This document shows positions 29,779-42,193 of a stretch of 64,000 bases of DNA, piece by piece; within the stretch, counting starts at the first letter, position 1; the number at the start of each line of letters is the position of its first letter. The position numbers and the translations under genes are program-made. The notes under the pieces were generated by a model, which saw only the letters and a program-made list of their open reading frames with translations, ran no database searches and had not been told where the DNA came from. Origin of the DNA: Escherichia coli (lineage in GTDB: Bacteria > Pseudomonadota > Gammaproteobacteria > Enterobacterales > Enterobacteriaceae); NCBI RefSeq assembly GCF_022846255.1, contig NZ_AP025682.1; one strand, written 5' to 3'.

Positions 29779-31880
<2,102 letters not shown>

Positions 31881-32045
31881 TTAGTTAATTCTCTGTGTCG
31901 TGCGCGTCCCAGCTTGAAAAAACGTAATAATAGTGAAAGGTTTACTCATAAATGAGCGGCATTTTGCGTAAACCTGCGCCAGTTGGCAACTTATTACAGC
32001 CATTGGCGGCACGCGTTGCTAATTCACGATGGTGATTTTATTTCC

Positions 32046-32061
32046 ACGCAAACGGTTTCGT
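32046..32061 (+). promoter_or_regulatory. PurR operator (pur box) in purL control region
   Basis: ACGCAAACGGTTTCGT matches the pur-box consensus, about 90 bp upstream of the purL start. Confidence 0.6.
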
Positions 32062-32137
32062 CAGCGCATCAGATTCTTTATAATGACGCCCGTTTCCCCC
32101 CCTTGGGTACACCGAAAGCTTAGAAGACGAGAGACTT

Positions 32138-35100
32138 ATGATGGAAATTCTGCGTGGTTCGCCTGCATTGTCGGCATTCCGAATCAACAAACTGCTGGCA
32201 CGTTTTCAGGCTGCCAGGCTCCTGGTTCACACTATTTACGCCGAGTATGTCCATTTTGCTGACCTCAATGCGCCGTTAAACGATGATGAGCACGCACAAC
32301 TTGAACGCCTGCTGAAATATGGCCCGGCACTCGCCAGCCACGCCCCGCAAGGCAAACTCCTGCTGGTGACCCCGCGTCCTGGCACCATCTCTCCCTGGTC
32401 TTCGAAAGCGACCGATATTGCCCATAACTGCGGGCTGCAACAGGTAAACCGCCTTGAGCGCGGCGTTGCTTACTATATAGAAGCCGGTACGCTGACCAAT
32501 GAACAATGGCAGCAGGTTACCGCTGAACTGCACGACCGCATGATGGAAACGGTCTTTTTTGCTTTAGATGATGCAGAGCAGCTGTTTGCACACCATCAAC
32601 CGACTCCGGTCACCAGCGTTGATTTGCTGGGGCAGGGCCGTCAGGCGCTAATCGACGCTAACCTGCGTCTTGGCCTGGCACTGGCGGAAGATGAAATTGA
32701 CTATTTGCAGGATGCTTTCACAAAGCTTGGTCGTAACCCGAACGACATCGAACTGTATATGTTTGCCCAGGCGAACTCCGAGCACTGCCGCCACAAAATT
32801 TTTAACGCCGACTGGGTTATCGATGGTGAACAGCAGCCGAAATCGCTATTTAAGATGATCAAAAACACCTTCGAAACCACGCCGGATCACGTTCTCTCTG
32901 CTTATAAAGATAACGCCGCCGTAATGGAAGGTTCTGAAGTGGGCCGCTACTTTGCTGACCACGAAACGGGCCGCTACGATTTCCATCAGGAACCGGCGCA
33001 TATTCTGATGAAAGTCGAAACTCACAACCACCCGACGGCGATTTCTCCGTGGCCGGGCGCGGCGACCGGTTCCGGCGGTGAAATCCGCGATGAAGGTGCC
33101 ACCGGACGTGGCGCAAAGCCGAAAGCCGGTCTGGTTGGTTTCTCCGTATCCAACCTGCGAATTCCTGGCTTCGAACAGCCGTGGGAAGAAGATTTCGGTA
33201 AACCTGAGCGCATTGTTACCGCGCTGGACATCATGACCGAAGGCCCGCTGGGCGGTGCGGCGTTTAACAACGAATTTGGTCGTCCGGCACTGAACGGCTA
33301 CTTCCGTACTTATGAAGAAAAAGTGAACAGCCACAATGGCGAAGAGCTGCGCGGTTATCACAAACCGATCATGCTGGCGGGTGGGATCGGCAACATTCGC
33401 GCCGATCACGTACAAAAAGGCGAGATCAACGTTGGTGCGAAGCTGGTCGTTCTCGGCGGCCCGGCAATGAACATCGGTCTTGGCGGCGGCGCGGCGTCTT
33501 CCATGGCATCTGGTCAGTCTGATGCCGACCTCGACTTTGCTTCCGTACAGCGCGACAACCCGGAGATGGAGCGTCGCTGCCAGGAAGTGATCGACCGTTG
33601 CTGGCAGCTTGGTGATGCCAACCCAATCCTGTTTATCCACGACGTTGGCGCAGGCGGTCTTTCTAACGCCATGCCGGAACTGGTGAGCGACGGCGGGCGC
33701 GGCGGTAAATTTGAACTGCGCGATATCCTGAGCGACGAACCGGGCATGAGCCCGCTGGAAATCTGGTGTAACGAATCCCAGGAACGCTACGTGCTGGCGG
33801 TTGCTGCCGATCAGTTACCGCTGTTTGACGAACTGTGTAAGCGTGAGCGCGCACCCTACGCGGTGATTGGTGAAGCGACCGAAGAACTGCATCTTTCTTT
33901 GCACGATCGTCATTTTGATAATCAGCCGATTGATCTACCGCTGGACGTACTGCTTGGCAAAACGCCGAAGATGACCCGCGATGTACAAACGCTGAAAGCG
34001 AAAGGCGACGCGCTGGCCCGTGAAGGGATCACCATCGCTGACGCGGTGAAACGCGTGCTGCATCTGCCGACCGTGGCGGAGAAAACTTTCCTGGTGACCA
34101 TCGGTGACCGCAGCGTAACCGGCATGGTGGCGCGCGATCAGATGGTGGGGCCGTGGCAGGTGCCGGTCGCTAACTGCGCGGTCACTACCGCCAGCCTCGA
34201 CAGCTACTATGGCGAAGCGATGGCAATTGGCGAACGTGCGCCAGTTGCGCTGCTGGATTTCGCCGCTTCTGCCCGTCTGGCAGTCGGTGAAGCGCTAACC
34301 AACATCGCCGCAACACAAATTGGCGATATCAAACGCATTAAACTTTCCGCCAACTGGATGGCGGCGGCAGGCCACCCTGGTGAAGATGCTGGCCTGTATG
34401 AAGCCGTTAAAGCTGTGGGTGAAGAACTTTGTCCGGCGCTGGGCCTGACGATACCGGTGGGTAAAGACTCTATGTCGATGAAAACCCGCTGGCAGGAAGG
34501 TAACGAAGAGCGCGAAATGACGTCGCCGTTGTCGCTGGTGATTTCCGCATTTGCCCGCGTGGAAGATGTACGTCACACCATTACGCCGCAGCTTTCTACC
34601 GAAGATAACGCACTGTTGCTGATTGATTTGGGCAAAGGCAATAACGCGCTGGGCGCAACGGCACTGGCGCAGGTTTATCGTCAGCTTGGCGACAAACCGG
34701 CAGATGTACGCGATGTTGCCCAACTGAAAGGTTTCTATGACGCGATTCAGGCACTGGTTGCACAGCGTAAGCTGCTCGCGTACCACGACCGCTCTGACGG
34801 TGGCCTGCTGGTGACGCTGGCGGAAATGGCGTTTGCTGGTCATTGTGGCATTGACGCAGATATCGCCACTCTGGGTGACGATCGTCTGGCTGCATTGTTT
34901 AGCGAAGAACTGGGTGCGGTGATTCAGGTGCGAGCCGCTGACCGTGAAGCCGTTGAAGCGGTACTGGCACAGCATGGGCTTGCTGATTGCGTCCATTATG
35001 TTGGGCAGGCGGTTTCCGGTGACCGTTTTGTGATTACCGCCAACGGGCAGACTGTATTTAGCGAAAGCCGCACCACGTTGCGTGTCTGGTGGGCAGAAAC

Positions 35101-36025
35101 TACCTGGCAGATGCAGCGCCTGCGTGACAACCCGGAGTGTGCCGATCAGGAACATCAGGCGAAATCAAACGACGCCGATCCGGGCCTTAATGTGAAACTG
35201 TCGTTCGATATCAACGAAGATGTGGCAGCACCGTTTATTGCCACTGGCGCGCGTCCGAAAGTTGCTGTGCTGCGTGAGCAGGGCGTGAACTCCCATGTTG
35301 AAATGGCGGCAGCTTTCCACCGTGCAGGCTTCGATGCTATCGACGTGCATATGAGCGATCTGCTGGCTGGACGCACGGGCCTGGAGGGTTTCCACGCCCT
35401 GGTCGCGTGCGGTGGTTTTTCCTACGGTGATGTGCTGGGCGCTGGTGAAGGTTGGGCGAAGTCTATCCTGTTCAATGACCGTGTACGCGATGAGTTTGCA
35501 ACCTTCTTCCATCGTCCGCAAACGCTGGCGCTGGGGGTATGTAACGGTTGCCAGATGATGTCTAATCTGCGTGAACTGATCCCAGGTAGCGAGTTGTGGC
35601 CACGTTTTGTGCGTAACACCTCCGATCGCTTTGAAGCGCGTTTCAGTCTGGTAGAAGTAACCCAAAGCCCGTCGCTGCTGTTGCAGGGGATGGTGGGCTC
35701 GCAGATGCCGATTGCTGTCTCTCACGGTGAAGGGCGCGTTGAAGTGCGCGATGCGGCGCATCTGGCGGCACTGGAAAGCAAAGGGCTGGTGGCACTGCGC
35801 TATGTCGATAACTTCGGCAAAGTCACTGAAACCTACCCGGCTAACCCGAACGGTTCACCGAACGGTATTACGGCGGTCACGACTGAAAGTGGTCGAGTCA
35901 CCATTATGATGCCGCACCCGGAACGAGTTTTCCGTACTGTCAGCAACTCCTGGCATCCGGAAAACTGGGGCGAGGATGGCCCATGGATGCGCATTTTCCG
36001 CAATGCACGTAAGCAGTTGGGGTAA
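32138..36025 (+). CDS. purL: Phosphoribosylformylglycinamidine synthase
   Basis: 1295 aa; FGAM synthetase with C-terminal glutamine amidotransferase domain. Confidence 0.95.
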
Positions 36026-36358: not shown

Positions 36359-36543
36359 AGTGGCTCATTCGCCGACTTATGTCAGCCCCTTCGGGACGTG
36401 CTACATAAAATTCGAATGACGCACAACAAGGTGCCTGCCGTCCAACTTCTGATATCAGCGTAGCTATATCAACCATCGGGCGAAACGTCGAGTTAGGCAC
36501 CGCCTTATTCCATAACAAAGCCGGGTAATTCCCGGCTTTGTTG
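36359..36543 (+). ncRNA. glmY: Small regulatory RNA GlmY
   Basis: Begins AGTGGCTCATTC right after the sigma54/sigma70 promoter and ends at hairpin AAAGCCGGG-TAATT-CCCGGCTTT plus U-run; lies between purL and glrK. Confidence 0.75.
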
Positions 36544-38906: not shown

Positions 38907-40230
38907 ACCTGCGCATTTATTACTGGTCGATGACGATCCGGGATTGCTGAAACTGCTTGGCCTGCGCCTGACCAGCGAAGGCTACAGTGTGGTCACGGCG
39001 GAAAGTGGTGCTGAAGGATTGCGGGTACTGAATCGCGAAAAAGTAGATTTAGTCATCAGCGACCTGCGGATGGATGAAATGGACGGTATGCAGCTGTTTG
39101 CTGAAATCCAGAAAGTGCAGCCGGGAATGCCAGTAATTATTCTTACCGCGCATGGTTCTATTCCTGATGCCGTTGCTGCAACACAGCAGGGCGTGTTCAG
39201 TTTTCTCACCAAGCCTGTCGATAAAGATGCGCTATATCAGGCAATTGACGATGCGCTGGAACAATCCGCGCCAGCCACCGACGAACGTTGGCGCGAGGCG
39301 ATTGTCACCCGCAGCCCGCTGATGCTGCGCTTGCTGGAACAGGCGCGGCTGGTGGCACAATCAGACGTTAGCGTTTTGATTAACGGCCAGAGCGGCACCG
39401 GGAAAGAGATTTTCGCCCAGGCTATCCACAACGCCAGCCCGCGCAACAGCAAGCCATTTATTGCTATTAACTGTGGCGCATTACCCGAGCAATTGCTGGA
39501 GTCGGAGCTGTTTGGTCATGCACGTGGCGCGTTTACTGGCGCTGTCAGCAATCGCGAAGGTTTATTCCAGGCGGCGGAAGGCGGTACGCTATTTCTTGAT
39601 GAGATTGGCGATATGCCTGCACCGTTGCAGGTCAAACTGCTGCGCGTGTTGCAGGAGCGTAAAGTGCGCCCGCTGGGCAGTAACCGCGATATTGATATCG
39701 ACGTGCGGATTATTTCTGCGACCCACCGCGACCTGCCAAAAGCGATGGCGCGTGGGGAATTCCGTGAAGATCTTTATTACCGCCTCAATGTTGTCAGCCT
39801 GAAAATTCCGGCACTGGCGGAGCGCACAGAAGACATTCCGCTACTGGCAAATCACCTGTTGCGCCAGGCGGCAGAGCGACATAAACCGTTTGTCCGCGCG
39901 TTCTCCACCGATGCAATGAAACGCCTGATGACTGCGAGCTGGCCGGGCAACGTGCGCCAGTTGGTCAACGTGATTGAACAGTGCGTGGCGCTGACATCAT
40001 CTCCGGTAATTAGTGATGCGCTGGTGGAGCAGGCGCTGGAGGGCGAAAACACGGCGCTGCCAACCTTTGTTGAGGCGCGTAATCAGTTTGAACTCAACTA
40101 TTTGCGTAAGCTGCTGCAAATCACCAAAGGCAACGTCACCCACGCGGCGAGAATGGCGGGGCGCAACCGGACAGAATTTTATAAACTGCTTTCCCGACAC
40201 GAACTGGATGCAAACGATTTCAAGGAATGA
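38896..40230 (+). CDS. glrR: Sigma54-dependent response regulator GlrR
   Basis: Receiver domain (LLVDDD), AAA+ sigma54-interaction domain with GAFTGA motif, C-terminal HTH; start ATG overlaps qseG stop. Confidence 0.9.
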   Translation: MSHKPAHLLLVDDDPGLLKLLGLRLTSEGYSVVTAESGAEGLRVLNREKVDLVISDLRMDEMDGMQLFAEIQKVQPGMPVIILTAHGSIPDAVAATQQGVFSFLTKPVDKDALYQAIDDALEQSAPATDERWREAIVTRSPLMLRLLEQARLVAQSDVSVLINGQSGTGKEIFAQAIHNASPRNSKPFIAINCGALPEQLLESELFGHARGAFTGAVSNREGLFQAAEGGTLFLDEIGDMPAPLQVKLLRVLQERKVRPLGSNRDIDIDVRIISATHRDLPKAMARGEFREDLYYRLNVVSLKIPALAERTEDIPLLANHLLRQAAERHKPFVRAFSTDAMKRLMTASWPGNVRQLVNVIEQCVALTSSPVISDALVEQALEGENTALPTFVEARNQFELNYLRKLLQITKGNVTHAARMAGRNRTEFYKLLSRHELDANDFKE

Positions 40231-41915: not shown

Positions 41916-42193
41916 ATAAAAAATAGCCCTGCAATGTAAATGGTTCTTTGGTGTTTTTCAGAAAGAATGTGATGAAGTGAAAAATTTGCATCACAAACCT
42001 GAAAAGAAATCCGTTTCCGGTTGCAAGCTCTTTATTCTCCAAAGCCTTGCGCAGCCTGAAGGTAATCGTTTGCGTAAATTCCTTTGTCAAGACCTGTTAT
42101 CGCACAATGATTCGGTTATACTGTTCGCCGTTGTCCAACAGGACCGCCTATAAAGGCCAAAAATTTTATTGTTAGCTGAGTCAGGAGATGCGG

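Follow-up and report, generated by a model that had tools for sequence, protein, structure and literature searches.

Operators of the LacI/GalR family, such as those of LacI, GalR, Cra/FruR and RbsR, are palindromes with a central CG step, and are bound by a dimer via the helix-turn-helix and hinge helices. PurR, a dimeric member of this family, binds DNA only together with hypoxanthine or guanine (PMC10912719, PMC4052901), by a mechanism that was reviewed in 2024 (PMC10912719). These ligands act as corepressors needed for DNA binding, whereas most LacI/GalR members are released by their ligand (PMC4052901). PurR orthologues have been found only in Enterobacteriales, Pasteurellales and Vibrionales, and the regulator was derived from RbsR with retention of the DNA motif (Ravcheev et al. 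2014, PMC4052901). The PurR of Bacillus and Lactococcus shares the common name and the physiological target, the purine biosynthesis genes, but is an unrelated PRPP-binding protein that uses tandem PurBoxes, has PRPP and (p)ppGpp as effectors, and is not homologous (PMC10912719).

The operator of PurR (PUR box) is a 16-bp imperfect palindrome. The boxes of the pur regulon (purF, purT, purHD, purMN, purC, purEK, glyA and others) share with that of purL the palindrome around a central CpG, the half-site ACG(A/C)AAAC, the location in the promoter and the corepressor-dependent repression. According to Cho et al. (PMC3159470), the -35/-10 region is the usual location of PurR sites, with initiation being blocked, and purL is among the IMP-pathway genes repressed by PurR-hypoxanthine. 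These authors counted purL with the previously characterised PurR targets and located its motif at 2,693,642-2,693,657 of MG1655; in their ChIP-chip analysis PurR enrichment at purL had a log2 ratio of 1.88 with adenine and was undetected without adenine, and the binding region spanned 224 bp, which alone is no proof that the 16-mer is the contacted sequence (PMC3159470). The original work, by He et al. 1990 and Meng et al. 1990, is cited in a RegulonDB evidence paper and in the 2024 review (PMC10912719), and purL is named in the title of the latter as it is cited in the review.

We analysed a 64,000-nucleotide stretch of Escherichia coli chromosomal DNA (the window), for which a preliminary description, made from the letters alone, had proposed a near-consensus PurR operator in the divergent region between mltF and purL. 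Direct reading of the sequence located the 16-mer ACGCAAACGGTTTCGT at 32046-32061, exactly where it had been described, with the central CpG at 32053-32054, and the exact 16-mer occurred only once in the window. Its 16 bp form an imperfect palindrome of the type ACGCAAACGTTTGCGT / ACGNAAACGTTTGCNT, central CpG included, and when compared with the perfect palindrome ACGCAAACGTTTGCGT, 14 of the 16 positions agreed, the mismatches being G10 and T13. Read on the other strand, it gives the reverse complement ACGAAACCGTTTGCGT, in which every base agrees with the PurR motif tabulated for purL by Cho et al. 2011 (Table 1, PMC3159470). It was thus confirmed that the site is near-consensus, and that it has the same 16 bp in the same mltF-purL intergenic context of the same species as the purL operator of E. 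coli K-12, with no difference in the box (PMC3159470). The purL operator is already known in E. coli and there is nothing novel about the site. When compared with the other boxes of the pur regulon, that of purL carries the non-consensus G10 and T13, both of which are invariant across Enterobacterales.

The box is housed in a gap of 257 bp between mltF (30324-31880, minus strand) and purL (32138-36025, plus strand), the latter being the regulated gene, which encodes FGAM synthase. Both genes are open reading frames whose names come from RefSeq annotation transferred from an identical E. coli region, and NCBIfam equivalog models confirmed them, at 754 bits for MltF and 2271 bits for PurL (NF003672); the divergent arrangement is that given in the preliminary description. 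The region 31850-32200 was present at no less than 95% identity (>=95%) in 5425 of 5426 complete genomes, and a 59-bp core at 32034-32092 was at least 99% identical in 5392 of these 5425.

A scan with a PurR position weight matrix (PWM), which had been suggested as a check on the site, was carried out. Table 1 of Cho et al. 2011 (PMC3159470) lists 28 motif instances; 26 of them went into the matrix, and the purL and glyA sites were omitted because both are located in this window. The purL box scored 21.74 bits, the highest value among all 128,000 positions and strands of the window, and did not fall below threshold. The exact score distribution gave a per-site p of 1.6e-8, which is well past the cut-off of P<1e-4 used by Cho et al. 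(PMC3159470); the expected number of occurrences is 0.002 in a window and 0.15 in a 4.6-Mb genome. The score also lay inside the range of 12.3-24.7 bits of validated PurR sites. None of 200 windows simulated with a first-order Markov model (Markov-1) reached it, the highest simulated score being 20.76 bits.

The position of the box relative to the purL promoter was then considered. A scan for consensus promoters called no plus-strand promoter for purL, because the -35 element is weak; the hexamer TTTCGT (32056-32061, plus strand), assigned to the -35 position from the geometry, matches TTGACA at only two of six positions. The promoter was defined instead from the perfect-consensus -10 hexamer TATAAT at 32079-32084 (plus strand), which is invariant in the alignments described below. 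The distance from the end of the box to this hexamer was exactly 17 bp in all 54 distinct Enterobacterales sequences, with TATAAT found at this position in 52 and TATACT in two. This spacing of 17 bp places the 3' half of the box, with its last six bases, at the -35 position. From the -10 hexamer alone, transcription is predicted to start at 32091-32092 (plus strand), 7-8 nt downstream, and we infer on this basis that the box extends from about -45/-46 to about -30/-31 of the purL promoter. This placement fits the statement of Cho et al. on PurR sites in the -35/-10 region (PMC3159470). The end of the box and the purL ATG further downstream are 77 bp apart. Immediately 5' of the box, the A/T-rich segment GATTTTATTTCC (32034-32045, plus strand) is a candidate for a region that may act like an UP element; the corresponding segment was (G/A)ATTTTATTTC in Enterobacteriaceae and another A/T-rich sequence (AATAATAGC) in other families.

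The distribution of the box among species was examined by scanning species-representative genomes with a DNA pattern back-translated from the N-terminal PurL peptide LRGSPALS(A/D/E)FR, which yielded 120 loci. The same PWM was run over 350 nt upstream of purL with a threshold of at least 16 bits. A box was detected in all 58 usable Enterobacterales loci, in 23 of 25 from Vibrionales and in 10 of 11 from Pasteurellales. No box of at least 16 bits was found within these 350 nt in any of the 19 loci of other taxa, namely Fibrobacter, Pseudomonas/Stutzerimonas, Idiomarina/Aliidiomarina, Burkholderiales, Accumulibacter, Opitutus, Sulfuriflexus and an unclassified MAG, and the PWM maximum in control segments taken inside genes was 10.4 bits. 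The range of the box matched the published range of PurR orthologues (PMC4052901), which suggests that, at the level of orders, the box tracks the regulator PurR. In two loci from PurR-bearing orders, those of Salinivibrio, where only 200 nt upstream of purL were available, and Spirabiliibacterium, where 1200 nt were searched, no recognisable PurR box was seen upstream of purL, and the site may have been lost or relocated there.

When 27 genera of Enterobacterales were aligned, the half of the intergenic region next to purL showed two invariant blocks, the box and TATAAT. Within this order the box was invariant save for A/G at position 1 and a single T/A at position 13. The box was located 16-17 bp from TATAAT in Pasteurellales and about 29 bp from it in Vibrionales, that is, about 12 bp further upstream and 5' of a separate -35-like GTTACA. 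The cross-species data thus give a small refinement, in that the spacing between the box and the -10 hexamer is rigid in Enterobacterales and shifted in Vibrionales.

The two non-consensus positions were also followed across the orders. G10 was retained in Enterobacterales and most Vibrionales, and T13 in the two orders whose box overlaps the -35 position, Enterobacterales and Pasteurellales; in Vibrionales, with the box further upstream, position 13 was the consensus G. T13 worsens the match of both the box and the -35 hexamer. The invariance of G10 and T13 across Enterobacterales might reflect a dual constraint as operator and -35 element.

The preferred interpretation, to which we assign a probability of about 0.97, is that the LacI/GalR-family PurR controls E. 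coli purL by binding the 16-mer as its operator. The regulation of purL by purines through this box, as expected in the preliminary description, was supported by the identity with the ChIP-chip motif, by the fixed spacing to the -10 hexamer and by a taxonomic range matching that of PurR. For in vivo binding, corepressor dependence and repression we rely on the literature cited above, and the following scheme can be proposed. When purines are plentiful, PurR would be loaded with its corepressor, hypoxanthine or guanine, and the loaded dimer would bind the 16-bp palindrome. Because the box ends 17 bp short of TATAAT and its final six bases take up the -35 position, RNA polymerase should be blocked by bound PurR, presumably because it is sterically excluded from the -35 region, and any UP-like contacts, at the purL promoter. 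With the promoter occluded in this manner, purL transcription would drop. The value of the site lies in a correct annotation, that of a textbook repressor-operator pair coupling purL transcription to purine availability, and in its use as a positive control, in which a real regulatory site was identified at its exact coordinates from sequence alone.

Short palindromes do arise by chance, and a window should contain 1.5 PWM matches of about 13 bits on average, so it has to be weighed whether the 16-mer resembles the PurR consensus fortuitously and plays no part in regulation. The purL box, however, has a score expected 0.002 times per window and attained in none of the 200 simulations, stays invariant in 58 Enterobacterales species (apart from the substitutions noted above) though its flanks diverge, and lies in a region bound by PurR in published ChIP-chip work (PMC3159470), which leaves a virtually negligible probability for a fortuitous match. 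The same ChIP enrichment at purL also speaks against the site being shared with, or mainly serving, a different regulator of the LacI family, for example RbsR, which is the paralogue closest to PurR. The origin of PurR from RbsR with the motif kept (PMC4052901) is in line with such use, as is the A at position 4 of the right half-site (ACGAAACC, lower strand); this A is, however, the commonest base at that position in ChIP-validated PurR sites (PMC3159470), and no purL box was found in Pseudomonas, Stutzerimonas and beta-proteobacteria, which have a single RbsR and no PurR (PMC4052901). Use of the site by RbsR or a similar regulator is, on this evidence, extremely improbable.

It is also conceivable that the box controls the divergent mltF as well, or mainly, for instance via an overlapping promoter-like site on the minus strand. 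Indeed, the promoter scan found CTGACG-18-TAAAAT (32064..32035, minus strand) overlapping the box, and the divergent mltF-purL layout was kept in 57 loci from Enterobacterales and 22 from Vibrionales. These hexamers, however, were not conserved outside Enterobacteriaceae, whereas a far better conserved minus-strand promoter, TTGCCA-17-CAAAAT (31989..31961), was present about 100 bp from the box. Furthermore, the rigid spacing of 17 bp is to the -10 hexamer of purL and not to any mltF element, and Cho et al. assigned the binding region to purL only, with mltF/yfhD nowhere mentioned (PMC3159470). Control of mltF as the main role of the box was rejected on the grounds of the unconserved overlapping site and the better conserved promoter about 100 bp away, and an involvement of the box in mltF expression is considered highly unlikely; the operator is assigned to purL.

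Regarding mltF itself, the blocks GCATTTTGC and GCAAC (31959-31990) were almost invariant across the 27 genera of Enterobacterales. Read on the minus strand, they form the sigma-70-type promoter TTGCCA-17-CAAAAT mentioned above, which from its sequence is likely to drive mltF transcription; the start is predicted near 31954, and the PurR box is about 100 bp away. The start codon of mltF, as annotated and as read from the open reading frame, is TTG at 31878-31880 (minus strand).

Two further PWM matches in the window deserve description. A second strong PurR box, AGGTAATCGTTTGCGT, was located at 42060-42075 in the gap between hmpA and glyA with a score of 20.97 bits, 119-134 nt upstream of the glyA ATG (42194). 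Cho et al. 2011 (PMC3159470) give the same sequence for glyA in their Table 1, and boxes of at least 20 bits were present upstream of glyA in eight other species. The third-best match, ATGCAAACGATTTCAA at 40208-40223, scored 12.97 bits and is located 68-83 nt 5' of the glnB ATG (40291), where it overlaps the end of glrR; the same 16-mer was seen only in Citrobacter. A score of 12.97 bits was reached in 187 of the 200 simulated windows, which is chance level, and ATGCAAACGATTTCAA could not be called from the PWM alone. A PurR site at glnB was reportedly found by He et al. 1993, and ATGCAAACGATTTCAA is probably this box, which we regard as a candidate. The known glnB site was missed by ChIP-chip (PMC3159470).

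Downstream of the promoter, both ends of the purL leader were strongly conserved, namely CGTTTYCCCCC at 32091-32102 and GAAGACGAGAGA at 32123-32134, before the start codon. The middle of the leader, within 32091-32134, was variable, with an extra hairpin in many genera. The C tract at 32096-32102 contains seven C in the window and in E. albertii, and six in the representative genome of E. coli; this is a length polymorphism outside the box and the only local difference seen among E. coli genomes.

The leader was also considered as a structured RNA, and this candidate was rejected. No Rfam match was obtained even at E<=10, the E. coli leader was less structured than its shuffles (z +2.5), and RNAalifold applied to 55 leader sequences returned no consensus pairs. 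A 7-bp stem of CGTTTTC with GAAGACG, proposed by hand, was 82% paired, with covariation not above that of shuffles. The conservation of the leader is real, and a structural explanation for it is unsupported. It appears unlikely that CGTTTYCCCCC and GAAGACGAGAGA subject purL to an additional level of control not described so far. If they did, start-site switching, reiterative transcription, or pairing between the 5' end and the Shine-Dalgarno sequence might be involved; among pyrimidine genes, pyrC and pyrBI are known examples of start-site switching or reiterative transcription. The GC-rich discriminator (GACGCCC) and the T/C-run start of purL presumably resemble those of nucleotide-sensitive promoters, a likeness that we offer as speculation.

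The purL open reading frame begins with ATGATG (32138-32143), of which only the second ATG (32141) was invariant across the 55 aligned sequences. Many genera had a single ATG at the position of 32141, and the alignment to the NCBIfam profile started at residue 2. Judging from these alignments, the true start of purL may be 32141 instead of the annotated 32138. Beyond the 3' end of purL, the known gene of the small RNA GlmY was found between purL and qseE/glrK at 36359-36506 (plus strand), where it matched Rfam RF00128 at 143.6 bits.
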